This document shows, piece after piece, positions 2,462 through 32,000 of a DNA stretch of 32,000 bases (position 1 is its first letter; every line of letters starts with the position of its first letter). The stretch is from Mucisphaera calidilacus (GTDB taxonomy: Bacteria > Planctomycetota > Phycisphaerae > Phycisphaerales > Phycisphaeraceae), in contig NZ_CP036280.1 in assembly GCF_007748075.1 (NCBI RefSeq), forward strand, positions 810,001-842,000. Reading direction: 5' to 3'. Below the pieces are notes generated by a model that was given only the letters and a program-made list of their open reading frames with translations, did not search any database and had not been told where the DNA came from. A program made the position numbers and the translations under genes.

Positions 2462-2462
2462 T

Positions 2463-4389: not shown

Positions 4390-4392
4390 GCA

Positions 4393-6681: not shown

Positions 6682-6753
6682 ATCCGCTAGGATAACGGCA
6701 CCGGCACCCGAGGGTATGCCGACACGATCCAAACCCCGATCACCGGAGCAGAC

Positions 6754-10731: not shown

Positions 10732-10781
10732 TGCCCCATCCTATCTCACTTCACACCCCAAACCCGAAATCTGCCGATCAC

Positions 10782-10810
10782 TCGACTCGCCACGCCCCGA
10801 CATCTACAAT
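10782..10810 (+). promoter_or_regulatory. Candidate sigma-70-type promoter for nadA
   Basis: TCGACT (10782-10787), a 17-nt spacer, then TACAAT (10805-10810). It is followed by AAGGAG (10825-10830) 6 nt before GTG 10837. Sequence pattern only. Confidence 0.3.
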
Positions 10811-10836
10811 GAGGTGTTCTACGCAAGGAGCCTTCC

Positions 10837-12021: not shown

Positions 12022-12059
12022 CCGGGCCGAGTCGTTAACATCGCACCCGGAGGTACCGC

Positions 12060-13211: not shown

Positions 13212-13221
13212 CACACGATCC

Positions 13222-13884: not shown

Positions 13885-13955
13885 CAGCCACTTCCCGGTA
13901 AACAGGTCCGTGAACCATTACGATAACCGCTCGCACCGCAATCCCGAAGACGAGT

Positions 13956-14930: not shown

Positions 14931-14933
14931 GCC

Positions 14934-15893: not shown

Positions 15894-15922
15894 CACCCGC
15901 ACACCCGCACCGGAGCTCCGCC

Positions 15923-16963: not shown

Positions 16964-17006
16964 AGGCTATTTCGCCGGTATTTCGTGCCCGATCAGCGGT
17001 CCGGCT

Positions 17007-17258
17007 CGTGGATAACGTGGGGGAATGGCCCCAAAGCTACCCTTAGCTAACTCATACAGACGCCGCTCTGGCAGGAACGATTGTCCGTAAATACGCCTTA
17101 ATTGCCCTTCGGGGGGCGATCAGAAGCATATCGCGTACCAATCGACTCATGAATACAGGTCAATCCGTAGACCGACTCTCGCGATGTGGATTACCCGTGG
17201 TGACAAACTGGGTAACTCAGGGTGACCTGGCGCATGCGCATCCTCATCCTGTGGACAA
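17007..17258. promoter_or_regulatory. Cluster of three DnaA-box-like 9-mers (8/9 matches to TGTGGATAA, same orientation)
   Basis: CGTGGATAA 17007-17015, TGTGGATTA 17185-17193 and TGTGGACAA 17250-17258, all read on the + strand inside a low-GC non-coding island. Motif matching only. Confidence 0.4.
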
Positions 17259-17363
17259 GCTGTCCGATCGCGACGCCTCCTGACACCACCATGGCCGACC
17301 AAAAAAACCTTCCCCGCGTAAACCGGTGTCTTTTCGCGATTTGAAGCGATTGCGCCAGCTTAA

Positions 17364-17410
17364 CCCCTAGATAAGCTAAAGAAAACCATTGCGAACCCAA
17401 GATATAGTGT
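17364..17410. promoter_or_regulatory. NrdR-box-like tandem (one good box, one half-matching box 31 nt upstream)
   Basis: ACCCAAGATATAGTGT (17395-17410) matches 14/16 positions of the NrdR-box consensus acaCwAtATaTwGtgt as I recall it. CCCCTAGATAAGCTAA (17364-17379) shares only the left half, CCCwAGATA. Confidence 0.3.
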
Positions 17411-17678
17411 TTAGCATGGTCGATGGCCGTGACGGAGCCTAAGCTCCAAATCGGCAGGTGTGCCACGTCGCAGGTCTCGGACCCGCAACATGACAATCAG
17501 GGAAGACGCCAAAGGCCCTCACCGGCTCTCGCGCGATCCCTCTGTCGGTTGCTTCCTGGCCCTCATCGCGACGGCAGGGGGCAAGGACGCCTCGGCACAC
17601 ACTCGAGCGACAGCGCTCGTTTCAGGCTGTCTCTGGCTCCCTCGCGGGGCCGGGAAGAGAAGCCCGGGCGGTTCGGGC

Positions 17679-17706
17679 TTGACTGGGAAGATAACGTTCG
17701 TACTCT
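17679..17706 (+). promoter_or_regulatory. Candidate sigma-70-type promoter proximal to dcd
   Basis: TTGACT (17679-17684), a 16-nt spacer, then TACTCT (17701-17706), about 47 nt upstream of the dcd ATG. Pattern only. Confidence 0.3.
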
Positions 17707-17752
17707 GTTTGGTATGACCAAACAGAATCCTACCACGGAGATCGGTCGTACC

Positions 17753-18325
17753 ATGGCGGTGCTCTCAGACACGCAAATCCGGGAACTGGTCAACATCGAA
17801 CCCTTCGAGGACGCCGAAAAACGCCCGGGACGCATCTCCTACGGCGTCTCCTCCTACGGCTACGACGTCCGCGTCGGAACCCTCTTCAAAATCTTTACCA
17901 ACGCGCCCACCGACGGCGGCGCCTCCATCGTCGACCCCAAGAAGTTCGACGACCGCAACTTCGTCACCGTCGACACCCTGGAGACCGGCAAAGACCACGT
18001 CATCATCCCGCCCAACTCCTTCGCCCTCTGCGAGACCGTCGAGACCTTCGCCATCCCACGCGACCTGCTCGTCATCTGCGTCGGGAAATCCACCTACGCA
18101 CGATGCGGCATCATCGTCAACGTCACCCCCCTCGAACCCGAGTGGCGCGGCAAAGTCACCATCGAAATCTCCAACACCACACCCCTCCCCGCCAAGATCT
18201 ACGCCAACGAGGGCATCGCACAGATGATCTTCCTCAAGGCCGATCGCGTCTGCGCCGTCTCCTACGCCGACAAGGCCGGCAAGTACCAGAACCAGTCCGG
18301 TCTCGTACTGCCGAAGGTGGATTGA
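17753..18325 (+). CDS. dcd: dCTP deaminase
   Basis: Start at ATG 17753 ([13 protein letters not shown]...) gives the typical 190 aa. Motifs: [30 protein letters not shown]. The ORF-track extension to 17423 runs into the non-coding island and has no homology. Confidence 0.9.
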
Positions 18326-18384
18326 TTACTTCGATTCTTCATTCTTTCGTTTCGCTGCGTCATCTTTGACAAGGACTGTCTTTT

Positions 18385-21300
18385 ATGAAAATCACCCGTC
18401 GTTTTACCCAGCCCGGCACGGACGTCTTCGAATCCATCGAGTGGTCCCGACGATCCTGCCGCATCGCCAACCTCGACGGCTCCGTCGTCTTCGAGATGTC
18501 CGACGCCGAGATCCCCGCGTCGTGGTCCCAGCTCGCCTCCGACATCATGATCAGCAAGTACTTCCGAAAGGCCGGCGTGCCCGCCGACGGCGGGCCCAAC
18601 GGACTCCCGGATCCCGACTGGACCCCAGGAGGGGGTGACACGAACAAGGAGGTTCCGGTCGGTCCGGAAAAATCAGCTCGCCAGGTCATCCACCGACTCG
18701 CCGGATGCTGGCGACACTGGGGCGAACGGCACGGCTACTTCGACACCACCGAAGACGCCCAGGCCTTCTACGACGAGCTCTGCTACATGCTCCTCAACCA
18801 GGCCGCCGCACCCAACTCGCCCCAGTGGTTCAACACCGGCCTCAACTGGGCCTACGGCATCAACGGACCCGCCCAGGGACACTCCTACACCGACCCCATC
18901 ACCGGACAGACACGAAAGTCCGAAGACGCCTACACCCACCCCCAGCCCCACGCCTGCTTCATCCAGTCCGTCCAGGACGACCTCGTCAACGAGGGCGGCA
19001 TCATGGACCTCTGGGTCCGCGAGGCACGACTCTTCAAATACGGCTCCGGCACCGGAACCAACTTCTCCTCCATCCGCGGCGAGAACGAGTCCCTCTCCGG
19101 CGGCGGCAAGAGCTCGGGCCTCATGAGCTTCCTCAAGATCGGCGACCGCGCCGCCGGCGCCATCAAGTCCGGCGGAACCACGAGACGCGCCGCCAAGATG
19201 GTCTGCCTCGACCTCGACCACCCCGACATCGAACACTTCGTCAACTGGAAGGTCCGCGAGGAAATCAAGGTCGCCGCGCTCGTCGAAGGCTTCAAGGCCA
19301 TCCAGGACGGCAAGACCTCCGACACCGACACCGAGACCGTCGGCGAGACCTGCGCACGACTCGGACTCACCCTCGACTACGACTTCAACGGCGAGTCCTA
19401 CCAGACCGTCTCCGGACAGAACTCCAACAACTCCGTCCGCATCCCCAACGCCTTCTTCAACGCCGTCGACAACAACACCGACTGGAACCTCACCCACCGA
19501 ACCACCGGCAACACCGTCAAGACCATGCCCGCCGCCGACCTCTGGGCACAGATCGGCTACGCCGCATGGCGCTGCGCCGACCCGGGCGTCCAGTTCGACA
19601 CCACCATCAACGAGTGGCACACCTGCCCGCAGAGCGGACGCATCAACGCCTCCAACCCCTGCTCCGAGTACATGTTCCTCGACAACACCGCCTGCAACCT
19701 CGCCTCCCTCAACCTCCTCAAGTTCTACGACCGCAAGACACGAACCTTCGACCTCCAGGCCTACGAAAACGCCACCGCCATCTGGACCGTCGTCCTCGAG
19801 GTCTCCGTCCTCATGGCCCAGTACCCCAGCGACGAGATCGCCCAACTCTCCCACGAGTACCGGACCCTCGGCCTCGGCTACGCCAACCTCGGCGCCATGC
19901 TCATGCAGGCCGGCATCCCCTACGACTCCGACCGCGCCCGCGCCATCAGCGGTTGCCTCACCGCCATCCTCACAGGACGCAGCTACGCCACCAGCGCCGC
20001 CATGGCCAGGCAACTCGGGCCCTTCGACGGCTACAAACCCAACGCCGACGACATGCTCCGCGTCATCCGCAACCACCGACGCGCCGCCTACGGCGTCCCA
20101 CGCGACCCCGCACTCTCAAAACACCACGAACTCAGCACCTACGAGGGACTCGACACCCCGCCCGTCCCCATCGACGCGGGCAACCTCACCTCCGCACGCG
20201 AAGCCGCGGGCGTCCTCGCCAACGCCGACGCACTCGCCGACCACGCACGACGCGCCTGGGACGACGCCCTCGCCCTCGGCGAACGCTACGGCTACCGCAA
20301 CGCGCAGGTCACCGTCATCGCGCCCACCGGCACCATCGGCCTGCTCATGGACTGCGACACCACCGGCGTCGAACCCGACTTCGCCCTCGTCAAGTTCAAG
20401 AAGCTCGCCGGCGGCGGATACTTCAAGATCGCCAACCAGTCCCTCCAGCCCGCCCTCGAAGCACTCGGCTACTCCGAAGACCAGCGGCGCGCCATCCTCA
20501 CCTACGTCATGGGCGCACTCCGGCTCGACGTGCCCATGCCCGCCGCCAACGGCACCGTCTCGAAGGGCGCTCCCACCTTCGCCGAGTACCTCATCGAGAA
20601 GGGACTTGACGACGCCGACCTCCAACGACTCACCGACACACTCCCCACCGTCTTCGAGATCGGCCAGGCCTTCACGCCATGGACCCTCGGCGAAGAAACC
20701 ATCCGCAAGATCAACCTCGCCGACCGCGCCGACGACCCCGAACTCAATGTCCTCCGCGAACTCGGCCTCACCGGCAAGCAGATCAATGCCCTCAACCTCG
20801 CCGTCTGCGGAACACAGACCATCGAGGGCGCACCCGAACTCGACGAGCAGCACCTGCCCGTCTTCGACTGCGCCAACAAGTGCGGCAACCTCGGCAAACG
20901 CTACATCGCGCCACAGGGCCACATCCGCATGATGGCCGCCGCTCAGCCCTTCATCACCGGCGCGATCAGCAAGACCATCAACCTCCCCAACGACGCCTCC
21001 GTCGACGACATCCTCGCCGCCTACCGCCTCAGCTGGGAACTCGGACTCAAGGCCAACGCCCTCTACCGCGACGGCTGCAAACTCAGCCAGCCCCTCAACT
21101 CAGGCGGTTCCGACACCACCGACGACGACGTCCTCGATGCCGAACAGGACGACGAGGCCGTCGAGATGGCCCGCGACGAAGTCGCCGAGCAGGTCGCCGC
21201 CGTCGCCGCCGAACCCGAGCCCGTCATCCGCGAACGCATCGTCGAGATGGTCGTCGAACGACCCCTCCGGCGACGACTCCCCGACACCCGGCACAGCCGA

Positions 21301-21987
21301 ACCCACAAGTTCAACGTCGCCGGTCACGAGGGCTACCTCACCGTCGGGCTCTACGAAGACGGATCCCCGGGCGAACTCTTCATCACCATGGCCAAGGAAG
21401 GCTCCACCATCGGCGGTCTCATGGACTCCCTCGGCACCGCCATCTCCGTCGCGCTCCAGTATGGCGTCCCGGTCGAGTCGCTCGTCTCCAAGTTCACCCA
21501 CCAGCGCTTCGAGCCCGCCGGCATGACCCACAACCCCGACATCCCCTTCGCCAAGAGCCTCGTTGACTACATCTTCCGATGGATGGGCATGGAGTTCGTC
21601 GAGGGGTACCGCTCCGCCAACGCTCCCCTCCGATCCACCGAGGATACCGACGGCCAGGATCTCCCCAAGACCTCACGCAAGATGAACACCATCAAGCCCG
21701 CCGCTCCCTCCGGCAACGGCAACGGGCACGGCAAACCCGCCGCTCAGCCCGCCACCGAAACCGCCACGCAAACCTCGACCGCCGTCATGATCGAGGAACA
21801 ACGCAAGCCACGCTTCGAGGTCCAGCACGAGTCCGACCGCGTCGCCGCCGAAGACAACAGCCTCGACGCAGCCATGAAGGGACTCCAGGCCGACGCGCCC
21901 GCCTGCGACGTCTGCGGAACCATCACCGTCCGCAACGGCACCTGCTACAAGTGCCTCAACTGCGGAAACTCCATGGGCTGCTCCTGA
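18385..21987 (+). CDS. nrdJ: Adenosylcobalamin-dependent (class II) ribonucleotide reductase, long form
   Basis: 1200 aa. Contains the typical NrdJ blocks PQPHACFIQ, YGSGTGTNFSSIRG, TVSGQNSNNSVRIPN, active-site NASNPCSEYMFLDNTACNLASLNL, and a C-terminal Cys-rich tail CDVCGTITVRNGTCYKCLNCG. AAGGA lies 9 nt before the ATG. Confidence 0.95.
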   Translation: MKITRRFTQPGTDVFESIEWSRRSCRIANLDGSVVFEMSDAEIPASWSQLASDIMISKYFRKAGVPADGGPNGLPDPDWTPGGGDTNKEVPVGPEKSARQVIHRLAGCWRHWGERHGYFDTTEDAQAFYDELCYMLLNQAAAPNSPQWFNTGLNWAYGINGPAQGHSYTDPITGQTRKSEDAYTHPQPHACFIQSVQDDLVNEGGIMDLWVREARLFKYGSGTGTNFSSIRGENESLSGGGKSSGLMSFLKIGDRAAGAIKSGGTTRRAAKMVCLDLDHPDIEHFVNWKVREEIKVAALVEGFKAIQDGKTSDTDTETVGETCARLGLTLDYDFNGESYQTVSGQNSNNSVRIPNAFFNAVDNNTDWNLTHRTTGNTVKTMPAADLWAQIGYAAWRCADPGVQFDTTINEWHTCPQSGRINASNPCSEYMFLDNTACNLASLNLLKFYDRKTRTFDLQAYENATAIWTVVLEVSVLMAQYPSDEIAQLSHEYRTLGLGYANLGAMLMQAGIPYDSDRARAISGCLTAILTGRSYATSAAMARQLGPFDGYKPNADDMLRVIRNHRRAAYGVPRDPALSKHHELSTYEGLDTPPVPIDAGNLTSAREAAGVLANADALADHARRAWDDALALGERYGYRNAQVTVIAPTGTIGLLMDCDTTGVEPDFALVKFKKLAGGGYFKIANQSLQPALEALGYSEDQRRAILTYVMGALRLDVPMPAANGTVSKGAPTFAEYLIEKGLDDADLQRLTDTLPTVFEIGQAFTPWTLGEETIRKINLADRADDPELNVLRELGLTGKQINALNLAVCGTQTIEGAPELDEQHLPVFDCANKCGNLGKRYIAPQGHIRMMAAAQPFITGAISKTINLPNDASVDDILAAYRLSWELGLKANALYRDGCKLSQPLNSGGSDTTDDDVLDAEQDDEAVEMARDEVAEQVAAVAAEPEPVIRERIVEMVVERPLRRRLPDTRHSRTHKFNVAGHEGYLTVGLYEDGSPGELFITMAKEGSTIGGLMDSLGTAISVALQYGVPVESLVSKFTHQRFEPAGMTHNPDIPFAKSLVDYIFRWMGMEFVEGYRSANAPLRSTEDTDGQDLPKTSRKMNTIKPAAPSGNGNGHGKPAAQPATETATQTSTAVMIEEQRKPRFEVQHESDRVAAEDNSLDAAMKGLQADAPACDVCGTITVRNGTCYKCLNCGNSMGCS

Positions 21988-22037
21988 TCAGACACCCGAC
22001 GCACCCAAGCGTCAGAACCGATTTCTTCCCTCTCCGT

Positions 22038-22075
22038 CCCCTCGGCGTCTTCACCGATGCCGAGGGGGCTTTTCG
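22038..22075 (+). terminator. Rho-independent terminator downstream of nrdJ
   Basis: CCCCTCGGCGTC (22038-22049), loop TTCACC, then GATGCCGAGGGG (22056-22067): a 12-bp stem with one G-T pair, followed by GCTTTTCG. Confidence 0.75.
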
Positions 22076-22094
22076 ATTGAGCTAAACTACGCCC

Positions 22095-24386
22095 GTGCAT
22101 CAAACCCCCGAACCTCAACACGACGACCGGGAAACCAACCAACCCGCGCTGGCCAACGCCAGCAACGACACCCGCCACCAACTCCGCATCGCCTGCGCCC
22201 TCATCATCACCACCTGTGTCCTTATCCCCGGACTCGTCCCCACCTTCGTCAACCCCTGGCTCGACACCGACCCCCGCGTCGACGGACTTCCACCCTCCCT
22301 CGGCGGGATGACCGGCACCCTCGCCCTCACCATCCAGGCCGTCGGTCTCACCGCCGCACTCCTCGGCATCCTCATCAGCCATCGCGCCCACATCTTCACC
22401 ACCTGCCTCGCCGGCTCGGGTTGCCTCGGCGTCATCGCCTTACTCATCTGGAACACGCCCTCCGTCAACGACACCGTTCTCCTGAGCTCATGGGCCTCCG
22501 CCGTGATCATGGCACTCGCTATGGCCACCCTCGCCGCCGACCTCGTCTCGGGCAACGCCGTTCGACGATGGGCTCTCGCCGCACTCGTCGCCGCGCTCAT
22601 CCCCATGACCGCCGACGCACTCTGGTTCGTCCTCGTCGAACACCCCGCCAACCTCCGCTTCTACGAACGCAACATGCCCGACATGCTCGCGGCACGCGGC
22701 TGGGCCGAAGGCTCGCCCGAACACCAGATGTTCGTAAGACGCATGAGCTTCGCCGACGCCACCGGCGCCTACGCCCTCTCCAACGTCTTCGGCTCCGTCG
22801 CCGGTACCCTCACCTGCCTCGGCCTCGGCTACACAGCCCTCAAACTCCGCGACCGCAACAACCTCACGCCCCTCGCCATCGCCGCCGTCGGCCTGCTGCT
22901 CATCCTGCTCACCGCTTCACGCGGCGCCCTCGCCGTCTTTAGCCTCGCCGCCGCATGGTTCATCCTCGCCCGGCTCTACGGCACATCTCGCAAACACCGC
23001 TGGCCCCTCGCCCTCGCCGGCCTCGCGCTCATCGCCGTCCCCTGGCTCGCGATCGCCTGGGCCGGCTCCACGGGACCGCCCCCGCCCGAATCCGTCGCCG
23101 CCGACGGCCAGCCCGCATGGCTCAGCCTCCTCTTTCGCTACTGGTACCTCGAAGCCGCCCTCCGGATGCTCAGCGAAACTCTGTTCCTCCCGATTGGTCC
23201 CGGCGGCTTCGCCATCATGTTCGGCTACACCCGCGACCCCATGCTCCCCGAGTCCGTCGCCAGCACCCACAACATCATCATGGACCTGCTCGTGATGCTC
23301 GGCATCTTCGGCCTTGGCTGGCTCACCCTCGCCGCACGCTGGCTCTGCCGCGCGACCACCACCAGCCTGCCCGCCAAAAACTCAGCCCCCCACACCCAGC
23401 CCAACTGGCTCGCCGGCCTGCTTGTCGCAGGTCATCTCTTCACACCGGTCCTCTGGATCAAGAGCGATCTGCTCCTGCCCGAGACCGCGCTCCTCGCCAT
23501 CCTCGTCCTCGCCGCCTACACCCTCACGATCGCCTGGCTCGCCACCCGACCCATCACACCCGCCACGGCCTGCGGCCTCGCCGCGGCCGGTGTCATGCTC
23601 CTCGGCCACGGCCAGATGGAGATGACCTTCTTCAACGGCCCCGCCTCGCAACTCGCGTGGGTCGTCCTCGGCCTCGCAGGGGGGATCGCCATCAACCAGC
23701 CGCACACCACGCCGGCAGGGCGGTCAGGCATGTTCCTCGCAGCAGCACTCGCGATGCTGGTGCTTAGCGCACACCTCTACGCGCTGGCACGCACCGCCAC
23801 CGTCGAGTTCACGACCCATCGCGCCGCCGTCGCTCTGGCCAACAACCGGCCCGACCAGGCCAGTCAGCACCTCGCCACACTGATCTGGGAACAGCGCGCG
23901 AGCCGCGTCAGGATCGAACCCGTCGCCGAGAAATGGCTGACGCAACTCGCCCTCGAGCAAGCCCATCATCTCCACGCAACGGACCGTCCCCAAACGGCGC
24001 TCGACCGACTCGATCAGGCACACCTCAATCTCGACCTCACACGACCCAAAGGACTCCGAAAACACATCGAGATCCTGCAGCAGCAGGCAGGCTACGCGTC
24101 CACCCCGGACGCCTGCCTCTATTTCACCGATCGTTCCTACAGAGCCCTCAACTACCTCCTCACCCTCACCCCCTACAACGTCCGCGACCGTCTCCGCCTC
24201 GTCGACGTCCTCATCCGTCTGCACGATCTCGACGCCGCCCAGGCCGAGCTCGACCGCGCCCGCGACATCAACGCCGGCCTCTACCTCGACCCGCTCAAGC
24301 AACTCCCCGACGAGGCATGGACCGCACGCGCCGAGCACATCGATGCGCAACGACCCGCGGAACCAACCGGTATCATGGCCCCATGA
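22095..24386 (+). CDS. O-antigen ligase (Wzy_C)-like polytopic membrane protein with C-terminal TPR-like domain
   Basis: More than 10 predicted TM helices with an LLILLTASRGALAVFSLAAAW segment typical of O-antigen ligase/Wzy_C proteins. The C-terminal roughly 200 aa are soluble and helical-repeat-like. GTG 22095 is the first in-frame start. Stop overlaps the aroA ATG (ATGA). Confidence 0.6.
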   Translation: MHQTPEPQHDDRETNQPALANASNDTRHQLRIACALIITTCVLIPGLVPTFVNPWLDTDPRVDGLPPSLGGMTGTLALTIQAVGLTAALLGILISHRAHIFTTCLAGSGCLGVIALLIWNTPSVNDTVLLSSWASAVIMALAMATLAADLVSGNAVRRWALAALVAALIPMTADALWFVLVEHPANLRFYERNMPDMLAARGWAEGSPEHQMFVRRMSFADATGAYALSNVFGSVAGTLTCLGLGYTALKLRDRNNLTPLAIAAVGLLLILLTASRGALAVFSLAAAWFILARLYGTSRKHRWPLALAGLALIAVPWLAIAWAGSTGPPPPESVAADGQPAWLSLLFRYWYLEAALRMLSETLFLPIGPGGFAIMFGYTRDPMLPESVASTHNIIMDLLVMLGIFGLGWLTLAARWLCRATTTSLPAKNSAPHTQPNWLAGLLVAGHLFTPVLWIKSDLLLPETALLAILVLAAYTLTIAWLATRPITPATACGLAAAGVMLLGHGQMEMTFFNGPASQLAWVVLGLAGGIAINQPHTTPAGRSGMFLAAALAMLVLSAHLYALARTATVEFTTHRAAVALANNRPDQASQHLATLIWEQRASRVRIEPVAEKWLTQLALEQAHHLHATDRPQTALDRLDQAHLNLDLTRPKGLRKHIEILQQQAGYASTPDACLYFTDRSYRALNYLLTLTPYNVRDRLRLVDVLIRLHDLDAAQAELDRARDINAGLYLDPLKQLPDEAWTARAEHIDAQRPAEPTGIMAP

Positions 24387-25705
24387 GCGATTACCCCAGG
24401 CAGCTCGACATCACGCCCATCGGACGGTTCGACCACACCGTCGATCTCCCCGGCTCCAAGTCGCTGACCAACCGCGCCCTGCTGCTCGCCGCGCTCTCCG
24501 ACGGGCCCTGCTACCTCACCAACACACTCTTCGCCGACGACACCGAACGCATGCTCGAAGCCCTCGACGCCCTCGGCTTCAAGATCGAGATCCAGCGTGG
24601 CCACAACGCCGTCCTCGTCGAGGGACACGCAGGCGTCATCCCCGCCACCCGGGCCACGCTCAACCTCGGCAACGCCGGCACCGCCGTCCGATTCCTCACC
24701 GCCGCACTCACCCTCGGCAAGGGCACCTACACCGTCGACGGCATCGAACGCATGCGCCAGCGACCCATCGCCCAACTCGTCGCGCCCCTCCGCGAACTCG
24801 GCGCCACCATCAACCACACCCACAGCGACGGCTACCCACCCCTCGAAATCCACGCCAACGGACTCGAAGGCGGCGAACTCCGACTCGCGCCCACTCTCTC
24901 CTCTCAGTACATCACAGCGCTCCTCCAGATCGGCGTCTACGCGCGCAAGGGACTCAACCTCCGACTCGACGGCCCCATCACCTCCCGACCCTACGTCGCC
25001 ATGACCCTCGGCCTGCTCGAGCACTTCGAGGTCCCCGTCGAAGCCTCCGACGACCTCAGCAGCATCGACATCACACCCGAGTGGATCCGCGGCAACGACC
25101 TCGCCATCGAGCCGGACGCCTCCTCCGCCAGCTACTTCTGGGCCGCCGCCGCCATCACCCCAGGCAGCTCATGCACCGTCAACGGACTCGGCACCAACAG
25201 CATCCAGGGCGACGCACGCTTCGCCAGCGTCCTCGAGAAGATCGGCGCCCGCGTCGTAATCCGAGCCGATCACACCACCGTCTCCGCACCCGCCGACGGC
25301 AAGCTCCACGGCATCGACATCGACCTCAACGACATGCCCGACGCCGCCATGACACTCGCCGCCATCGCGCCGCTCCTCGACGGCACCACCACCATCCGCA
25401 ACGTCGGCAACTGGCGCGTCAAGGAAACCGACCGCATGGCCGCCATGCAGACCGAACTCAACAAGACTGGCGCACAGGCCACCATCAACGGCGACGACAT
25501 CACCATCCACCCCCTCCCCGACGGCAGACTTCGGCCCGCCACCATCGACACCTACGACGACCACCGCATGGCCATGACCTTCACCGTCCTCGGCCTCGCC
25601 AAGCAAGGCGTCACCATCAACGACCCCGCCTGCGTCGCCAAGACGCTCCCCGACTTCTTCGAGCGCATCGAAACCCTCCGCACGCAGGCATCACCCGCAC
25701 ACTGA
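24383..25705 (+). CDS. aroA: 3-phosphoshikimate 1-carboxyvinyltransferase (EPSP synthase)
   Basis: Start at ATG 24383 (MSDYPRQLDITPIG...). Motifs: LPGSKSLTNRALLLAAL, LGNAGTAVRFL, VKETDRMAAM, DDHRMAMTF. The ORF-track extension to 23933 is an alternative-frame artefact over the upstream gene. Confidence 0.95.
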   Translation: MSDYPRQLDITPIGRFDHTVDLPGSKSLTNRALLLAALSDGPCYLTNTLFADDTERMLEALDALGFKIEIQRGHNAVLVEGHAGVIPATRATLNLGNAGTAVRFLTAALTLGKGTYTVDGIERMRQRPIAQLVAPLRELGATINHTHSDGYPPLEIHANGLEGGELRLAPTLSSQYITALLQIGVYARKGLNLRLDGPITSRPYVAMTLGLLEHFEVPVEASDDLSSIDITPEWIRGNDLAIEPDASSASYFWAAAAITPGSSCTVNGLGTNSIQGDARFASVLEKIGARVVIRADHTTVSAPADGKLHGIDIDLNDMPDAAMTLAAIAPLLDGTTTIRNVGNWRVKETDRMAAMQTELNKTGAQATINGDDITIHPLPDGRLRPATIDTYDDHRMAMTFTVLGLAKQGVTINDPACVAKTLPDFFERIETLRTQASPAH

Positions 25706-27595
25706 GTGCCGAGAGACCAAGTGTTCAAAGGCCCCTTCTGGATCAGCTGCCTCGACCTCCTGCGACACAAACGCGCCATCACCGGGGCGGTCGCCGCCAC
25801 CCTCGTCGCCGCACTCTGCTTCGGCGCAGGCCTCGCCATGATCTACCCGATCTTCAGCCTCTTCTTCGGCACCGCGCAGGCAGGCGACGCCAGCCTCGCC
25901 CAGAACCCGCTCCCCGCGAAGATCCATCAATTCGCCGACACCTCGTGGTTCCCGTACTGGATCAGTGAACCGCTCCACGCACTCGCCGAGGCCATGCCCA
26001 CGGACGCCCTCGTCGCCTTCATCGCCGTCATGGGCGTCATCTACGCCTTCAGCCTCGTCGCCAACCTGATGCGCTACATCCAGCAGCTGCTCATCAGCCA
26101 CATCGCCGAGCAGCTCGCAGCCGACTACCGCGAGAAGCTCTACACCAACCTCATCGAGGCACCCACCGAACACTTCATGCGCGAGGGCGCCGCCGACCAC
26201 GCCAGCAAGATCTGGATCGACGTCCGGGTCCTCACCAACGCCCAGGTCACCGTCTTCGGCAAGGGACTCTTCGAGGGCGCCCGCGGCCTCGCAGCCCTCG
26301 TCACCGCTTTCTTCTTCGACCCGCTCCTTGTCAGCGTCTGCCTCATCACAGCGCCGCCCACCGCGTTGCTCATCCGACGCTACGGCACACGCATCCGTCG
26401 CAGCTCCCGCGGCGCACTCGACCTCTACGGCGTCGCCATGTCACGCCTCAACGCCTCCATCTCGGGCCTCAGCACCATCAAGGTCTTCACCGCAGAGTCC
26501 TACGAGCGACGACGCTTCCGCCTGCTCAACCGACAGATCTACCGCCAGATGATGAACATCCGCGAGGCCCGCGCCAAGGCCTCCCCCTCCGTCGAGGTCA
26601 TCACCATGATCGGCGTTGTCGCCGCCGCAACCCTCGCCGCCTGGTACATCATCCGACACGGCGCCGACCCCAGCGCCGCACTCGCCACCCTCGGACTCCT
26701 CGCCGGAGCCGCGGCCGGACTCAAGCCCGTCACCCAGCTCCACAACGTCATCCACCAGGCCGACCCCGCCGCCAAACGCATCCTCGACGCCACCGGCATC
26801 GACACCGAACCAACACGATACGACGCAACAGCTCAACGCCCGCCGCTCCCGCGCCACAGCCGATCCGTCGTCTTCGACGCCGTCACCTACCACTACCCCG
26901 ACGCCGAGACACCCGCCCTCGACGGCATCACCCTCGAGGTCGAAGCAGGCTCCACCACCGCGATCGTCGGCGGCAACGGAGCCGGTAAGTCCACACTCCT
27001 CTACCTCATCCCACGCCTCATCGAACCCGCTTCCGGACGCGTCCTCATCGACGACACCGACATCACCACCGTCTCCCTCCGCTCGCTGCGCAAGCAGATC
27101 GCCGTCGTCCCCCAGAAGACGCACCTCTTCGAGGGAACCATCGCCGAGAACATCGCCTACGGCTCCAGCGAACGCAGCCTCGACGACATCGAAGCCGCCG
27201 CCCGAGCCGCCTTCGCGCACGAATTCATCGACGCCCTGCCCGAGGGCTACCTGACACGCCTGGGCGAGTCCGGGTCCGGGCTCTCAGGCGGGCAGGGGCA
27301 ACGCATCGCCATCGCCCGCGCCATCCTCCGCAACCCCGCCATCCTCATCCTCGACGAGGCGACCAGCCAGATCGACGCCGAGTCCGAGGCGAAAATCAAT
27401 CAGGCCATCGACCGGTTCGCCCAGCAGCGAACGACGTTCGTGATCGCGCACCGCATGTCGACCGTCGTGAACGCCGACCGCATCGTGGTCATGGACCGCG
27501 GACGTGTCATCGACGTCGCGCCGCACAGCGTGCTGCTCGAGCGATGCGAGCTCTATCACAATCTCTCGAAGACCCAGCTCGACGCCGGGTCATAA
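25706..27595 (+). CDS. ABC exporter, fused permease/ATPase (MsbA-like lipid exporter family)
   Basis: N-terminal six-helix-type TMD followed by an NBD with Walker A GGNGAGKST, signature LSGGQGQRIAIARA and Walker B ILILDEATS. GTG 25706 directly abuts the aroA stop. An alternative GTG is at 25721. Confidence 0.85.
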   Translation: MPRDQVFKGPFWISCLDLLRHKRAITGAVAATLVAALCFGAGLAMIYPIFSLFFGTAQAGDASLAQNPLPAKIHQFADTSWFPYWISEPLHALAEAMPTDALVAFIAVMGVIYAFSLVANLMRYIQQLLISHIAEQLAADYREKLYTNLIEAPTEHFMREGAADHASKIWIDVRVLTNAQVTVFGKGLFEGARGLAALVTAFFFDPLLVSVCLITAPPTALLIRRYGTRIRRSSRGALDLYGVAMSRLNASISGLSTIKVFTAESYERRRFRLLNRQIYRQMMNIREARAKASPSVEVITMIGVVAAATLAAWYIIRHGADPSAALATLGLLAGAAAGLKPVTQLHNVIHQADPAAKRILDATGIDTEPTRYDATAQRPPLPRHSRSVVFDAVTYHYPDAETPALDGITLEVEAGSTTAIVGGNGAGKSTLLYLIPRLIEPASGRVLIDDTDITTVSLRSLRKQIAVVPQKTHLFEGTIAENIAYGSSERSLDDIEAAARAAFAHEFIDALPEGYLTRLGESGSGLSGGQGQRIAIARAILRNPAILILDEATSQIDAESEAKINQAIDRFAQQRTTFVIAHRMSTVVNADRIVVMDRGRVIDVAPHSVLLERCELYHNLSKTQLDAGS

Positions 27596-27708
27596 GAGTG
27601 CGCCGGTTTGAAATAAGACCCGTGGGATACGGTTTATACATAGGTGGTGCCCCGGTGTCGGTGTGCGCTACCATTCAGAGAGCTGTCGAAACACAAGGAG
27701 ATACGAAC

Positions 27709-28356
27709 ATGCCTCAGATCAAATCCATTGTCGCCGGTGCGCTGGCCATCACCTTCATGCTGGCCGCCTGGGCGACCGCCGAGCCGGTTGTCGGCAAGGC
27801 CGCGCCGCAGTTCGAGCTGAAGGACGTCTCAACCGGCGAGATGGTCAGCCTTTATGACCATCAGGACCAGATCGTGGTCGTCGTGTTCCAGAGCATCAAC
27901 TGCCCGTGGGACCGCATGCGTGAGGACGGCGGCTACCAGCGCTACCTCTCGCCGCTCGCCGAGAAGTACGCCGAGAAGAACGTGACCTTCATCGCCATCA
28001 ACTCCAACAAGACCGAAAGTGCTGATCAGGTCGCCTCTTACCACAGTCAGCACAACATGCCCTACCCGATTCTGAAGGATCCGGAGAACAAGGTGGCGGA
28101 CAAGTACGGTGCTCGCACCACGCCGCACATCTACGTGATCGATGGCGACGGGATGCTCCGCTACATGGGCGGGATCGAGAAAGCCCCGCTGTCGCCTGAG
28201 CAGTGTGGCGAGATGGACGAGAACTATCTCGTGCCGGTGCTCAATGCTCTTATTGCAGGCGAGGAAGTGCCTTACACGAAGACGCGCAGCAAGGGCTGCT
28301 CGATCAAGCGTGTCGCGAGCAAGGGCGAGTCGCTGCAGCGGCGTCACGCGGCCTGA
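27709..28356 (+). CDS. Secreted thioredoxin-fold protein, peroxiredoxin-like (PRX_like1-type, single CPW cysteine)
   Basis: ATG 27709 is preceded by AAGGAG (27695-27700). Signal peptide MPQIKSIVAGALAITFMLAAWATA. Redoxin core VVVVFQSINCPWDR ... FIAINSN ... MPYPILKD ... YGARTTPHIYVID. Confidence 0.75.
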   Translation: MPQIKSIVAGALAITFMLAAWATAEPVVGKAAPQFELKDVSTGEMVSLYDHQDQIVVVVFQSINCPWDRMREDGGYQRYLSPLAEKYAEKNVTFIAINSNKTESADQVASYHSQHNMPYPILKDPENKVADKYGARTTPHIYVIDGDGMLRYMGGIEKAPLSPEQCGEMDENYLVPVLNALIAGEEVPYTKTRSKGCSIKRVASKGESLQRRHAA

Positions 28357-28362
28357 GTCTGA

Positions 28363-29814
28363 TCAGAGGAACCATCGGCTGATTCCCTCCGCGGGCATGT
28401 CGCCCGGGAGGGGCGGCGGATCAAAGTTCAGGTCGGTCGCGACCGCGCACAAAGCGGCATGGCCGGCGCGCACAGCGCCTTCCATCGTGGCGGGCCAGCC
28501 GGTGTCGGTCCAGTCGCCAGAAATGTAAAGACCTTTGAGGTCGCCACTTGCAGCAGGTCGTGCGGACATCAGCTCCGGCGACGGGCTGAAGGTGGCGACC
28601 TTTTCCTTGATCACGCGTCCGTGCAAAAAAGAGGGTTTTGGGTCGTTAAACGACCGTTCAACGCTGTTAACCGCGCGAAACAGCTCGGTTTTGGCCAGTT
28701 TCAGGACGTTTTTGGGGTGCTCCAAAACGGCTTTGTGCGCGCCCGAGGTGAGCAAGTGTGCGTGCTGAACCGGGCCCTGGTGGTCGATCGGCGCGTCGGG
28801 CGGGAGCGTCGTGACGCCCTTGTTGAAGATCCAGTCGAAGGGCCGGTCGGGCGTCACCAGGTGGGGCAGCCTCATCAGCGGCGGGTCGGTCAGCTCGTAG
28901 AAGAGGTGGACCGCGACGATGGGCGCGAAGGTCCAGCGGTCGAGGTTGGCCAGGCGCTGGTCGCGGGCGATGAGGTTGGCGTCGACGAGTTTGTGGAGTC
29001 GGTCGGGCGGGACGGTGGTGATGACGTGGGTGGCGGGACGGTGCTGGCCGTCGGCGGTGACGACGCCGGTGACGCGGCCGCCCTCGTGGGTGATGCGGGT
29101 GACGGAGGTTCCGAGTTCGAGTGAGCCGCCGGCGTTGCTGAGTTCCTGTTCGAGGGGCTGGTACAGCTCGACGAGGGGGATACGCGGGAGGCCGACGCCG
29201 AGCGCCTTGGAGGTGGCGAGGAAGCCTTCCTGGAAGACCTTGAGGGCGAGGGGCGCATCGACGTTCTCGGGCTGGTCGTTGCAGGCGGAGGTGATGGTGA
29301 CGTCCCAGAAGCGCCGGCGGGCGGTGCGGGGCTGGCCCCAGTCGTCGAGGAGCTGTGCGATGGTTCGGCCGCGGTGGCGTTCGCGGCCGGCTTTGCCCAA
29401 GGTGAGGATGCGGGTCATGGCGTAGGCGATGGCGAGCTTGTCGCGCAGGGAGAGGCCGCGCATGGCGAGGAAGGAGGGCGCGAGGTGAAGCGGTGCGGGC
29501 AGGGGGGCGGGGCTGATGGTGTCGACGGTGTTGTGCTCGGTGGTGAAGTGGACGCGGTGGTGCCACTCGATGACGTCGTGCAGGCCGAGCTGCTGGTAGA
29601 GGTCGAGGATGTGGGTGCAGGCGGGCATGACCGCGTGCTGGCACTGGTCGAGGACGACGTCGGTGGTCGGGTCGGTGAAGGAGGAGGCGCGTCCGCCAAG
29701 GCGTTTGCGGGTTTCGAGGAGCCGGACAGGCAGGCCGAGGCGCGCGAGGCGGAGCGAAGCGGCGATGCCTGCGAGTCCGGCGCCGATGACGATGATGTTG
29801 GCGTTCGGGGTCAC
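28363..29814 (-). CDS. hpnE: FAD-dependent oxidoreductase, hydroxysqualene dehydroxylase (HpnE)-like
   Basis: N-terminal IIVIGAGLAGIAASLRLARLGLPVRLLETRKRLGGRASSF and C-terminal GLYISGDWTDTGWPATMEGAVRAGHAA match what I recall of the HpnE/amine-oxidase family. GTG start at 29814. Confidence 0.65.
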   Translation of the reverse strand: MTPNANIIVIGAGLAGIAASLRLARLGLPVRLLETRKRLGGRASSFTDPTTDVVLDQCQHAVMPACTHILDLYQQLGLHDVIEWHHRVHFTTEHNTVDTISPAPLPAPLHLAPSFLAMRGLSLRDKLAIAYAMTRILTLGKAGRERHRGRTIAQLLDDWGQPRTARRRFWDVTITSACNDQPENVDAPLALKVFQEGFLATSKALGVGLPRIPLVELYQPLEQELSNAGGSLELGTSVTRITHEGGRVTGVVTADGQHRPATHVITTVPPDRLHKLVDANLIARDQRLANLDRWTFAPIVAVHLFYELTDPPLMRLPHLVTPDRPFDWIFNKGVTTLPPDAPIDHQGPVQHAHLLTSGAHKAVLEHPKNVLKLAKTELFRAVNSVERSFNDPKPSFLHGRVIKEKVATFSPSPELMSARPAASGDLKGLYISGDWTDTGWPATMEGAVRAGHAALCAVATDLNFDPPPLPGDMPAEGISRWFL

Positions 29815-29845
29815 GCAGAGAGTTTAGACGGATCGCCCGGCGGCG

Positions 29846-31264
29846 TTAGTTGCGGCGTGCGGTGATCATCAGTGCGAGGGCGCTGATCGTGAGCGTGGCG
29901 GGTGCGGGCACGTTGGTGGTGCCGAAGTTGGCCGCGAGGATGGAGAGGTCAAGGAGGTCGACGGCGAGGTCTTCGTTGAAGTCGCCGGTCCACCAGTAGG
30001 CGTCGTCGCTGGTGTTGAAGCTGTCGGCGAGGATGGCGAGGTCGAGGAGGTCGACTGTGTTGTCGAGGTTGGCGTCGCCCGGGATGATGTTGCTGAGGTT
30101 GAAGGTTGCGGTGCCGTCAGTGGCGAGGCTGGTGGTGTCGAAGGTTCCGATGGGCGTGTTGATGATGATCTCGTCGAACCATCCGGTGACGTCGGCGTTG
30201 TTCCAGTCGAAGAATTGGATCGTGGTGTTGTCCCAGAACAGGAAGTCGATGTCGTCGAGACTCACGATCTCGATTTCGAGGGTTCCGCCCAGAGAGACGG
30301 GGGTGTCGGGGCTGGCGAAGGTGATCAACGGCTCTCTGAACCAGTGCATCACGGCCTTGAGTTGCAGGTGGCTGTCGCTCGCCAGGTTCATGCCCTCGAC
30401 GACGGTGACGGGGGCTTCGTCGTCACTACTGGGCGCGTCGATCAGACGGGAATCGCCGCTGCCGAGGTTGAACTGCCGGACGTAGCCCTCGTTGTTGATG
30501 AGTCCTTCTGCGGCGGCGGCCTGATCGATCTGCTGCTGGGTGATTCCGCTCTCTCTGAAGTCGGTGTTGGTGAGATCGGCGTTGGTGAAATGGGCGCCTG
30601 TGATATTGCTGCGGATGTGTGCGCCACGGAGTGTGCTGTTATCGAAGCGGGCGTCGATGTACTCGCCGAAGAGCCATGCGTCGGTGAGGTCGGCGTTCAT
30701 GATGGATGCCGAGTAGAATTCAGAATTCAACAGTGCATTCGTGAGTATGGCGTTATCGAGGTTCAGTCTTCCTTCGAGCCAAGAGTCATAGAGAAAGAGT
30801 GCGGCGTCGGTCAGATTGGCGTTTTCGAAGGAGAGATTGTGGTAGGAGTGATTGTGGTAAGTGTCGCCGTCGATACGGATTGTCGATTCAGTAAGATTGC
30901 TGTTACTAAAAGTTAAGCTGTCATAGTAATCACCTAGGATCACGACCGTTGTCAGGTTTGCACCGGTGAAATTGGTATTAGTAAGTATGCTTTCTAATAA
31001 ATACGCGGTGGAGAGGTTGGTGTTCTGGAAGTTGACACCCGTGAGGTCCTTGTTCGGGAGCCATGCCATGCTGAGGTCGAGGTTGCTGAGGTCGGCATCG
31101 GGCAGGGCGTCACGGCCTGCTCCGTCGGGGCAGGTTGTTGAAGATTCCTGCCTGATGCGCGAGCCGCTGGCGGGATCGGCGTACTCCCACTGGTAGATGT
31201 CTGCGTGGGCGCAGGAGACGAACAAAGCGGCAACGAGAAGGGCCCTGGAAGCGGAAGTGATCAT
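29846..31264 (-). CDS. Secreted pentapeptide-repeat protein with a dockerin-like repeat pair and a PEP-CTERM-type anchor
   Basis: Start at ATG 31264 (MITSASRALLVAALFVSCAHA signal peptide), with GGAG 7 nt upstream. Pentapeptide repeats: NFQNTNLSTAYL, NFTGANLTT, NANLTDAALF, NADLTDAWLF, NADLTNTDF. Two dockerin-like calcium-loop repeats: GDANLDNTVDLLDLAILADSF and GDFNEDLAVDLLDLSILAANF. C-terminal VPAPATLTISALALMITARRN. Confidence 0.8.
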   Translation of the reverse strand: MITSASRALLVAALFVSCAHADIYQWEYADPASGSRIRQESSTTCPDGAGRDALPDADLSNLDLSMAWLPNKDLTGVNFQNTNLSTAYLLESILTNTNFTGANLTTVVILGDYYDSLTFSNSNLTESTIRIDGDTYHNHSYHNLSFENANLTDAALFLYDSWLEGRLNLDNAILTNALLNSEFYSASIMNADLTDAWLFGEYIDARFDNSTLRGAHIRSNITGAHFTNADLTNTDFRESGITQQQIDQAAAAEGLINNEGYVRQFNLGSGDSRLIDAPSSDDEAPVTVVEGMNLASDSHLQLKAVMHWFREPLITFASPDTPVSLGGTLEIEIVSLDDIDFLFWDNTTIQFFDWNNADVTGWFDEIIINTPIGTFDTTSLATDGTATFNLSNIIPGDANLDNTVDLLDLAILADSFNTSDDAYWWTGDFNEDLAVDLLDLSILAANFGTTNVPAPATLTISALALMITARRN

Positions 31265-31448
31265 GATGTGGCTCCGGAAAGAGTTACTTCTTAAGAGCAA
31301 CATAGCCTTTGAGGGGTGTGGTGGGAAGGGGGAATTTGAGAGATTTGAAGAAAAACTCACCCTGCGTGGCTGGGAGGAAGGCAGGGCACCGTTTCTATTC
31401 GTGATGCTGTGTGGCGGGTCGTTGGGGCAGGGGTCGGTTGCGAAGGAT

Positions 31449-32000
31449 TTAGTATTCGCGGCGTTGTCGTGCGGCGGGGATGCCGAGTTGCTTGCGGTAC
31501 TTGGCGACGGTGCGTCGGGCGATGTCGATGCCTTTGGCCTTGAGGGCGTCGGCGAGGGCGTCGTCGGAGAGGGGGCTGGCCTTGTCTTCGGCGTCGACGA
31601 CCTCCTTGAGCCGGGCCTGGACGGCGGTCCAGCTCATCGCCTCGCCTTCTTCGGTTTCGGTGCCGCCTGAGAAGAACATGCGGAGGGGGAAGATGCCGCG
31701 CGGGGTCTGGAGGTACTTCTCGCTGACGGCGCGGGAGACGGTGGCGACGTGGATGCCGAGCTGGTCGGCGACGGTGGTCATGGGCAGGGGTTTGAGTCCG
31801 GACTCGCCCTGCTCGAAGAAGTCGCGTTGGGCGAGGACGACGACGTTGATCACGCGGAGCAGGGTGTTCTGCCGCTGTGCGATGGCGTCGAGGAGCCAGG
31901 AGGCCTCGCGGAGGTTGTTGCCGACGAACTCGCGGGTGCGTTTTTCGACCTCCTTGTCTTTGGCGAGCTGCTGGTAGGACTCGCTGATCTGGAGGGTGGG
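31449..32000 (-). CDS. rpoN: RNA polymerase sigma-54 factor, C-terminal part (5' end outside the window)
   Basis: RpoN box ARRTVAKYRKQLGIP and HTH VADQLGIHVATVSRAV, plus AQRQNTLLRVINVVVLAQRDFF. The reading frame stays open to nt 32000, in whole codons. Confidence 0.9.
   Translation of the reverse strand, partial: PTLQISESYQQLAKDKEVEKRTREFVGNNLREASWLLDAIAQRQNTLLRVINVVVLAQRDFFEQGESGLKPLPMTTVADQLGIHVATVSRAVSEKYLQTPRGIFPLRMFFSGGTETEEGEAMSWTAVQARLKEVVDAEDKASPLSDDALADALKAKGIDIARRTVAKYRKQLGIPAARQRREY

Follow-up and report, generated by a model that had tools for sequence, protein, structure and literature searches.

An extreme GC-skew flip in the chromosome of Mucisphaera calidilacus: very probably a replication-direction boundary and possibly a drifting terminus

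GC skew is the standard tool for placing replication origins and termini, for checking assemblies and for calling genes as leading or lagging. Every bacterium studied so far has a G-rich leading strand, and a change from C-rich to G-rich marks the origin (e.g. PMC4613354). The typical bacterial GC skew is about 2.5% (SkewDB, PMC8941118), and the most extreme skews among RefSeq genomes are about +/-0.4 (bioRxiv 10.1101/808410). At described origins (Lobry, Grigoriev) the inflection is sharp and the G-rich strand is also T-rich. Inflections at the terminus or dif (Hendrickson and Lawrence; Kono et al. 2011, PMC3025954) are likewise sharp, occur in variable regions, where they can fall within genes or beside them, and can shift as the lengths of the arms change; the dif prediction failed for the one planctomycete in the latter study. 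Local skew reversals are also a known trace of inversions, as in the anomalies of SkewDB (PMC8941118) and the gene-level 'inverted skew' (PMC6220195). In animal mitochondria, the G+T-rich and C+A-rich strands are independent of gene orientation, and inversion of the replication origin is known to reverse the sign of the skew (e.g. PMC7062073).

We analyzed 32 kb of the chromosome of M. calidilacus, a member of the Phycisphaeraceae (the window, by which we mean this whole stretch of DNA), in which the composition of the two strands flips. The flip resembles the inflection at bacterial origins in its C-rich to G-rich sign, its sharpness and the T-richness of the G-rich strand, but it lacks a dnaA/dnaN neighbourhood, a DnaA-box cluster and an origin-size AT-rich non-coding region, lies inside genes, shifts among collinear relatives and is about ten times the typical magnitude. 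Its sharpness, its position in genes, its variable surroundings and its mobility are those of terminus inflections; its sign, however, is opposite to that of every described terminus. As in inversion-caused reversals, the sign changes locally, but synteny is intact, both sides are equilibrated and the steps fall inside genes. Of comparable four-fold magnitude is the mitochondrial asymmetry, which has the same G+T-rich and C+A-rich strands. Animal mitochondria, however, replicate a 16-kb circle by strand displacement, whereas M. calidilacus has a two-arm bacterial chromosome of 3.5 Mb.

The plus-strand GC skew was -0.257 over positions 1-27,390 (G 6,769 / C 11,456), +0.052 over 27,391-28,930 and +0.289 over 28,931-32,000, and the G/C counts of the left and right arms differed with a chi-square of 542 (p ~1e-119). 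None of the 27 1-kb windows of the left arm was positive (mean -0.256, sd 0.061), and the minimum of the cumulative skew within the 32-kb window was located at 28,067. At four-fold sites the overall plus-strand skew was about -0.7 on the left and about +0.7 on the right. The plus strand of the left arm (1..27390; 15 plus- and 6 minus-strand genes) is C- and A-rich, with four-fold C of 0.63-0.75 and G of 0.12-0.18, and that of the right arm (28931..32000) is G- and T-rich, with four-fold G of 0.73 and C of 0.12. The G-rich strand also carries more T than A. The skew is far above the usual bacterial level, about ten times the typical value.

The asymmetry was then compared between genes of opposite orientation. 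In the left arm, four-fold plus-strand skews ranged from -0.49 to -0.88 among the 14 plus-strand genes scored (an NrnA-like gene, identified later, is absent from this table) and from -0.48 to -0.63 among the six minus-strand genes (pdxH, rluB, lptB, RnfD-like, Fer4 and hyp220); the three minus-strand genes of the right arm gave +0.55 to +0.85. Since genes of either orientation have the same sign of plus-strand skew, the bias tracks the DNA strand and not the gene strand. The preliminary description had reported an abrupt flip from hand counts of G and C in seven 60-nt lines, all of which proved exact; the flip is real both in sliding and bulk skew (-0.26 to +0.29) and at four-fold sites. Its statements that the asymmetry is much stronger than is typical and that it follows the DNA strand also hold, against the SkewDB and RefSeq values and gene by gene, respectively. 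The flip is very probably a true replication-direction boundary of some kind. Replication direction would reverse here, as at a replichore boundary, and an extremely strong replication-linked mutation bias in the lineage would make the boundary unusually clear, with neutral sites equilibrating near 75% C and 12% G on one strand and at the mirror image on the other.

The flip consists of two steps with a balanced plateau between them. A two-change-point fit placed the steps at 27,391 (support 27,202-27,433) and 28,930 (support 28,888-28,966), with G fractions of 0.14, 0.49 and 0.86 in the successive segments. The log-likelihood of this fit was -702.4; a linear ramp reached -708.6 and a single step -733.5. 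The plateau (27391..28930, 1.54 kb) has sharp edges and four-fold A, C, G and T of 0.07, 0.42, 0.41 and 0.10, with GC4 about that of the flanks. It contains the 3' end of the plus-strand gene of an MsbA-like ABC exporter (QDU70821, 25706..27595), in which the left step lies about 200 nt ahead of the stop codon, a 113-bp spacer (27596..27708), the whole of the plus-strand redoxin/AhpC-TSA gene (QDU70822, 27709..28356) and the 3' part of the minus-strand gene of an HpnE-like amine oxidase (28363..29814), in which the right step lies about 570 nt from the 3' end of the gene. The only other spacer is 6 bp, so that the 113-bp spacer is the sole sizeable non-coding DNA of the plateau; it has a promoter/RBS-like region, partly conserved among relatives (GAAATAAGACC...AAGGAGA). 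The change had been described earlier as complete by the intergenic region 27596-27708 and the redoxin gene as shifted toward G; in fact the plateau runs on to 28,930, and the redoxin gene is balanced (four-fold skew about -0.1). A pentapeptide/dockerin gene neighbouring the flip has a low GC content.

Relatives share the extreme skew. Among the seven genomes examined (the skewed clade and its closest relatives), five show a flip, each time with the same sign and within or adjacent to a single conserved gene block; the weak-skew genomes (L001-L005 and L066) showed no boundary. The position of the flip differs from genome to genome. In M. calidilacus it extends from msbA to hpnE, and in L060 (74% MsbA identity) from aroA to msbA. 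In L058 (GCA_040222855.1) it is located at a 52-bp spacer between two co-directional genes, and the coding strand of the aroA, msbA and redoxin genes is G-rich. L061 (Mucisphaera sp., a 3.25-Mb contig) is collinear with L058 over 21.9 kb at about 70% DNA identity, yet it is uniformly C-rich over the locus (22 kb) and has no flip. Close relatives would therefore replicate an identical set of genes, alike in order and orientation, in opposite directions. In Poriferisphaera corsica and strain ZRK32 the flip lies across yacL and the ffs spacer, and the syntenic region of strain WC338 is patchy, with several sign changes within 22 kb and one flank of opposite sign to that of ZRK32. The boundary thus shifts in place without rearrangement, both between L058 and L061 and between WC338 and ZRK32.

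These comparisons bear on the possibility, raised in the preliminary description, of a rearrangement or inversion breakpoint. On this reading a recent inversion or translocation would have ended here, and the DNA on one side would still show the skew that it had in its earlier orientation. Relatives are indeed distinguished by one small inversion, in which the segment of four genes aroA-msbA-redoxin-hpnE is turned relative to its neighbours. Both steps, however, lie within intact genes (msbA and hpnE), and the order of aroA, msbA and redoxin, with hpnE convergent to them, continues without a break across the flip and is shared by L058, L060 and L061. Alignment of 3 kb of the junction region showed L060 and the window to be collinear throughout, with 73% DNA identity. 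In addition, both flanks are at full compositional equilibrium and are separated by a balanced plateau, not by a single join. An inversion end point is therefore very improbable, and the synteny comparison refutes this part of the earlier proposal. An assembly chimera, or the edge of horizontally acquired DNA, is scarcely credible: nothing specific speaks for it, CP036280 is described as a single plasmid-free genome of 3.49 Mb (PMC8882080), the junction crosses conserved genes whose order is common to four other genomes, and similar flips occur in independently assembled genomes. The differing position of the flip among relatives without rearrangement, together with a collinear genome that has no flip, excludes both an inversion breakpoint and an assembly join.

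It is also conceivable, though improbable, that the flip is one of more than two replication-direction boundaries, owing to an extra active origin (for example, an integrated replicon) or to the long-lived remains of an old large rearrangement; neither 'origin' nor 'terminus' would then describe it. The several sign changes within 22 kb of WC338 would fit such a situation. The skew, however, stays uniform over 27 kb in the window and over 22 kb in L061, the flips in five of seven genomes at one conserved block point to a specific landmark rather than to scattered boundaries, and the gene list of the window contains no replication-initiator or mobile-element genes near the flip.

The change from C-rich to G-rich (-0.26 to +0.29), which gives a minimum of the cumulative skew, is the sign of an origin under the usual rule, as had been pointed out correctly in the preliminary description, and a terminus would show the opposite change, with a maximum. 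Hallmarks of both were searched for. Between 26.5 and 29.5 kb there was no DnaA box of the TTATCCACA type at one mismatch or fewer, the 113-bp spacer included, and there were two at two mismatches. Canonical DnaA boxes are present elsewhere in the window, and their sole cluster (17.0-17.26 kb) is not accompanied by a flip of the skew. No dnaA, dnaN, gyrB or parAB was found in the 32-kb window, from 27 kb to the left of the flip to 4.5 kb to its right, nor around any of the five boundaries over distances of 10-27 kb; in L058, L062 and L065 the 10 kb on either side of the boundary likewise contained neither dnaA/dnaN nor other origin-linked genes, and E. coli DnaA as a query gave no match in the window or the loci of the relatives. 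With spacers of 113 and 6 bp, the M. calidilacus flip offers no AT-rich non-coding unwinding region of oriC size (roughly >=200 bp). As for the terminus, a scan for the canonical 28-bp XerC/XerD dif site, requiring 10 or more of the 13 core positions, gave no match in the window, L058 or L060; a divergent dif may nevertheless be present. The earlier statement that neither dnaA nor a DnaA-box cluster nor dif lies at the junction is borne out by the gene list and by these scans. The flip zones had no 20-mer in common beyond chance, scans for repeats, promoters and terminators gave nothing above chance, and the inverted repeats seen were no better than expected between flanks of mirror composition. 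No tRNA genes were detected as orientation markers.

It is worth considering in this light that the flip may be an unconventional, movable origin of the usual sign, with a G/T-rich leading strand, which is not beside dnaA, is poor in DnaA boxes and fits into short spacers. The sign of the flip and the excess of T over A on the G-rich strand agree with the universal rule. The plateau, about one Okazaki fragment long in three genomes, would then be the interval between two leading-strand starts, in which both strands are made continuously; balanced plateaus among the genomes measure 1.5-2.5 kb. In P. corsica and ZRK32, the two Poriferisphaera genomes, the middle of the plateau is occupied by a conserved, AT-rich spacer 290-580 bp long. 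This spacer contains 4-5 degenerate words resembling DnaA boxes, where about 1.2-1.5 would be expected, and is flanked by yacL and ffs-dnaX, both transcribed away from it. Both yacL and ffs-dnaX are origin-proximal in Bacillus. L061 is compatible with a flip at the yacL/ffs spacer, just past the end of the locus.

Several facts are difficult to reconcile with this origin. The flips of M. calidilacus, L060 and L058 lie in gene bodies, with spacers of only 113, 153 and 52 bp, respectively, and no DnaA boxes. An oriC would be expected at a fixed position relative to its flanking genes, but the flip occupies at least three different places within one block and is missing from the collinear L061; such relocation without rearrangement is unexpected of a sequence-defined oriC, and at least two origin moves of 10-20 kb within the clade would be needed. 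The absence of dnaA, dnaN, gyrB and parAB near the five boundaries also speaks against an origin. In M. calidilacus, yacL (QDU71839) is 1,018 genes away from the flip (at msbA, QDU70821), although in Poriferisphaera this gene is where the flip lies; the flip and the yacL locus have therefore not moved together. Consecutive GenBank numbers place MsbA between gene 21 and gene 1,838 of 2,856. In P. corsica the flip is at 41.7% of the record (CP036425). The pipeline of the same laboratories puts dnaA as the first gene (PMC5177795); if this record too starts at dnaA, as it probably does, dnaA would lie roughly opposite the flip. The corresponding positions in ZRK32 (91.6%) and WC338 (35.3%) are mutually inconsistent, with no common record start. 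On balance, an origin of this kind, the chief alternative to a terminus, is possible but rather unlikely.

The orientation of the genes gives little help. The preliminary description had counted 17 of 23 left-arm genes on the plus strand; our tally is 15 plus and 6 minus, in agreement with the consecutive GenBank proteins QDU70801-70822. The orientation is convergent in 18 of 24 genes, with a binomial p of 0.02 that treats operon members as independent, which they are not. The median gene-strand bias of Planctomycetes is near 50% (PMC11040001), and across the window, L058, L060 and L061 we counted 41 genes on the C-rich strand versus 34 on the G-rich strand. Because of this near-even bias, and because the genes of relatives keep their orientation while the replication direction flips, orientation was rejected as a clue to origin or terminus. 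The paradox noted earlier, an origin-like sign at a terminus-like place, nevertheless stands, although not on its original basis of convergent orientation: it persists because the boundary lies inside coding DNA and shifts relative to conserved synteny, as a terminus does.

The position of the boundary in coding DNA without origin hallmarks, together with its sliding among relatives without rearrangement, suggests a terminus. The flanks, which differ among relatives and are variable and of accessory type, are typical of terminus regions and are counted in its favour. We judge the chances to be about even that the flip is a drifting fork-convergence boundary rather than oriC. Since the sign of the boundary is opposite to that of a terminus, this reading requires an inverted rule in the clade: the leading strand would be C/A-rich, opposite in sign to that of every bacterium examined to date. 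Of the three options in the preliminary description, a C-rich leading strand is thus now favoured, short of proof. In the fuller form of this reading, to which we give slightly less than an even chance, the leading strand of the Mucisphaera-Poriferisphaera clade is C/A-rich with an inverted skew about 10x the usual, the minimum of the cumulative skew is the terminus, and the 1.5-2.5-kb plateaus are two-sided fork-meeting zones.

Several points count against the terminus. The rule that a C-to-G change marks the origin is one, and we found no bacterial precedent for an inverted sign in the literature. A composition rich in G, with T in excess of A, is usually tied to the leading strand by single-strand deamination and by replication errors in mismatch-repair mutants; the excess of T over A on the G-rich strand is therefore that of an ordinary leading strand. 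The AT-rich spacer of Poriferisphaera, with its box-like words and genes transcribed away, is mildly origin-like, and a plateau of Okazaki-fragment size could also be obtained from an origin with leading-strand starts 1-2 kb apart. The absence of both a canonical dif and a shared flip-zone motif must be added to these points, as must the inconsistent record positions of ZRK32 and WC338.

If the boundary is a terminus, the 1.5-kb plateau would be DNA replicated about equally often from both sides, and the fork-meeting point would slide over the conserved block of about 20 kb with changes in the length of the arms or in the barriers to forks. The plateau may be delimited by a pair of opposed fork barriers, one near 27.39 kb and one near 28.93 kb; alternatively, the boundary may have shifted back and forth over time. 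Two opposed barriers, as in the fork traps of E. coli (Tus-Ter) and Bacillus (RTP-Ter), would yield a balanced plateau with two sharp steps. In M. calidilacus, however, no Ter-like repeat, above-chance inverted pair or barrier protein was identified, and the two steps, 1.5 kb apart, are much closer together than the barriers of E. coli, so that the resemblance is one of behaviour only.

The strength of the skew in this lineage exposes, from sequence alone, a kilobase-scale architecture of a replication boundary that is normally invisible. Should the boundary be an origin instead, it would be a hallmark-less origin that moves among relatives, which is equally unexpected. If the sign of the skew is indeed reversed in the clade, a rule treated as universal would be broken, and automatic origin calls and strand-bias statistics would be wrong for these genomes. 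Such a reversal would moreover suggest that replication or repair in this clade makes strand-specific errors of an unusual pattern.

The plus strand of the window changed from C-rich to G-rich at the flip, with a GC skew of -0.257 over 1-27,390 and +0.289 over 28,931-32,000 (chi-square 542). Left of the flip, no one-kb window out of 27 was positive. The sign change noticed in the preliminary description was thus borne out, and its 60-nt counts of G and C were all exact on recount. Genes were called from codon-position GC and Pfam, in agreement with the consecutive GenBank protein numbers QDU70801-70822, and the MsbA-like protein was 100% identical to a protein of M. calidilacus Pan265 (Phycisphaeraceae, Planctomycetota; 3,486,541 bp, CP036280). 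Left of the flip, plus-strand skew at four-fold sites was -0.49 to -0.88 in 14 plus-strand genes and -0.48 to -0.63 in 6 minus-strand genes, C-rich in both; on the right, three minus-strand genes were G-rich (+0.55 to +0.85). Since genes of both orientations share one sign on the left and the opposite sign is found on the right, the bias belongs to the DNA strand and not to the gene strand, as had been claimed. A minor C preference of the coding strand was added to this bias, and the G-rich strand also had T>A. Bacterial GC skew is typically about 2.5% (PMC8941118), and the extreme among about 7,000 RefSeq genomes is near +/-0.4 (bioRxiv 10.1101/808410). The species description of M. calidilacus makes no mention of skew.

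The flip had been thought complete by the 113-nt spacer, but it consisted of two steps, the second of which lies beyond the spacer. Four-fold sites were nearly pure C to about 27,280-27,420, balanced between G and C to about 28,950 and nearly pure G after that. A two-change-point model placed the steps at 27,391 (support 27,202-27,433) and 28,930 (support 28,888-28,966), with G fractions of 0.14, 0.49 and 0.86 in the three segments. Its log-likelihood (-702.4) was higher than that of a linear ramp (-708.6), and a single step was far worse (-733.5). The plateau between the steps takes in the redoxin gene in full, the spacer, and the 3' ends of msbA (200 nt) and hpnE (570 nt). At four-fold sites its GC content (0.83) was similar to that of the flanks (0.81-0.88), and it looks like the mean of both flanking regimes, not a third regime. 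The plateau would correspond to DNA replicated about equally often in either direction. Opposed barriers at the two edges could produce it, as could a boundary shifting back and forth.

A rearrangement or inversion breakpoint had also been considered. The order aroA-msbA-redoxin-><-hpnE, however, was uninterrupted across the flip and identical in three related genomes. The closest relative (73% DNA identity) was collinear with the window along the entire 3 kb aligned around the junction, and both steps fall within intact genes. The flip is therefore neither the end of an inversion nor an assembly join or island boundary. The flip is very probably a true replication-direction boundary. The terminus-like gene orientation pointed out earlier carries little weight as to its kind: gene-strand bias in Planctomycetes is about 50% (PMC11040001), and in the window and three related loci taken together the C-rich strand carried 41 genes and the G-rich strand 34.

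Extreme skew is a trait of the clade. It was present in GCA_040222855.1, a 9-kb Logan contig, Mucisphaera sp. (3.25-Mb contig), Poriferisphaera corsica (GC 48.5%) and strain ZRK32 (GC 47.5%), and absent in the other Phycisphaeraceae examined (L001-L005, L066). In five genomes a C-to-G flip lay within or adjoining one conserved block (ffs-dnaX-ybaB...GT4-GT4-SQS-SQS-hpnE-redoxin-msbA-aroA), at differing positions. It lay from msbA to hpnE in M. calidilacus, extended over aroA to msbA in the Logan contig, and fell in GCA_040222855.1 in a 52-bp spacer separating two co-directional genes, 7.6 kb past msbA. In P. corsica and ZRK32 it formed a 2.4-kb plateau comprising the dnaX 5' end, the ffs spacer and yacL. 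In M. calidilacus yacL is 1,018 genes away from the flip; the block was split there and the flip remained with the msbA part.

The Mucisphaera sp. locus was collinear with GCA_040222855.1 across the full 21.9 kb (about 70% DNA identity), and was C-rich throughout with no flip. The msbA coding strand was G-rich in GCA_040222855.1, and C-rich in Mucisphaera sp. and M. calidilacus. This opposite bias in collinear loci indicates that close relatives replicate the same genes, unchanged in order and orientation, in opposite directions. Poriferisphaera sp. WC338 (CP194516.1 1486234-1508084) shared the synteny of ZRK32 and P. corsica, and its 22-kb locus showed patchy skew with several sign changes, the yacL-to-ROK flank being opposite in sign to ZRK32. 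This patchiness points to an altered mutational regime or to a boundary that has recently moved back and forth.

Several features of these loci are recorded here in their own right. In Mucisphaera sp. (19855-21569) and GCA_040222855.1 (19787-21540), the called dnaX gene encodes about 399 aa, and a separate piece of 128-145 aa comes after it. The piece in Mucisphaera sp. weakly matched the tau C-terminus, and Poriferisphaera dnaX is one gene of 616-647 aa; either a frameshift or a split gene could account for this. In P. corsica, an AT-rich spacer (9548-9839) precedes the SRP RNA gene. It has a palindrome with 9-bp arms (GATCTGTAC...GTACAGATC), two direct repeats ACGCACTTrTG and a 24-bp element, GTATGTAT-N4-CTGAGAATAA, kept in three Poriferisphaera genomes, possibly a promoter or a site involved in replication. 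In the window, a pentapeptide-repeat protein gene with a dockerin domain (29846-31360, minus strand; GC about 0.55 against 0.67 around it) looks acquired; it nonetheless shows the strand skew of its arm in full, and it stands where relatives have SQS genes after hpnE. Two amine-oxidase/phytoene-desaturase-like genes lie at 782-2461 (plus) and 28363-29814 (minus), the latter being the hpnE-like gene of the squalene-synthase cluster, here apart from the SQS genes. A DHH/DHHA1 (NrnA-like) phosphoesterase gene (15950-16963, plus), concealed within a longer ORF, was overlooked in the first Pfam pass. lptB and rpoN adjoin in many Gram-negative bacteria; in the window they are 25 kb apart on either side of the flip (5896-6699 and 31449-32000, both minus).

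By the usual rule a flip of this sign marks an origin, and T is in excess on the G-rich strand. If two leading strands started some distance apart, the stretch between them could become a plateau about as long as an Okazaki fragment. The Poriferisphaera plateau holds a spacer of 290-580 bp that is rich in AT, has a few degenerate DnaA-box-like words and lies between divergently transcribed genes. The boundaries of M. calidilacus, the Logan contig and GCA_040222855.1, however, have neither origin-sized non-coding DNA nor a DnaA box. Canonical boxes are evidently in use in M. calidilacus, because three same-strand DnaA-box-like words, at 17007 (CGTGGATAA), 17185 (TGTGGATTA) and 17250 (TGTGGACAA), cluster in an AT-richer 750-bp non-coding region upstream of dcd-nrdJ (16964-17713). 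That region shows no skew flip, has AT-rich words like NrdR boxes near 17,360-17,410, and probably regulates the nucleotide-reductase operon. Our search likewise found no dnaA, DnaA-box cluster or dif at the junction, and dnaA/dnaN-type genes were near none of the boundaries examined. The boundary also shifts between collinear genomes, which is unexpected of a sequence-defined oriC, and the P. corsica flip is at 41.7% of a record that probably starts at dnaA, as the producers' pipeline puts this gene first. An unconventional, wandering origin is the main rival reading and seems to us less likely than not.

A point where forks meet shifts without rearrangement and lies among variable flanks, as this boundary does, and we give roughly even chances to a terminus with a C-rich leading strand. 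Against a terminus, the sign is wrong under the usual rule, to which no bacterial exception is known (PMC4613354), and neither dif nor a motif common to the flip zones was found. Two Poriferisphaera genomes differing by 0.9 Mb moreover share the position of the boundary, so that an anchor of some kind is implied. The remaining probability goes to artefacts or to replicon structures of greater complexity.

Neutral sites were near 75% C and 12% G on one strand, with the mirror image on the other, and T was nearly absent from those of the C-rich strand. This composition suggests a dominant strand-biased A:T-to-G:C pressure. Each main reading demands one undescribed thing, an inverted skew sign or a wandering origin. 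A new and very strong mutation process that is strand-specific is clearly at work in the clade; the sign of such a process is less constrained than that of ordinary weak skew, and for this reason we put the terminus above the unconventional origin.
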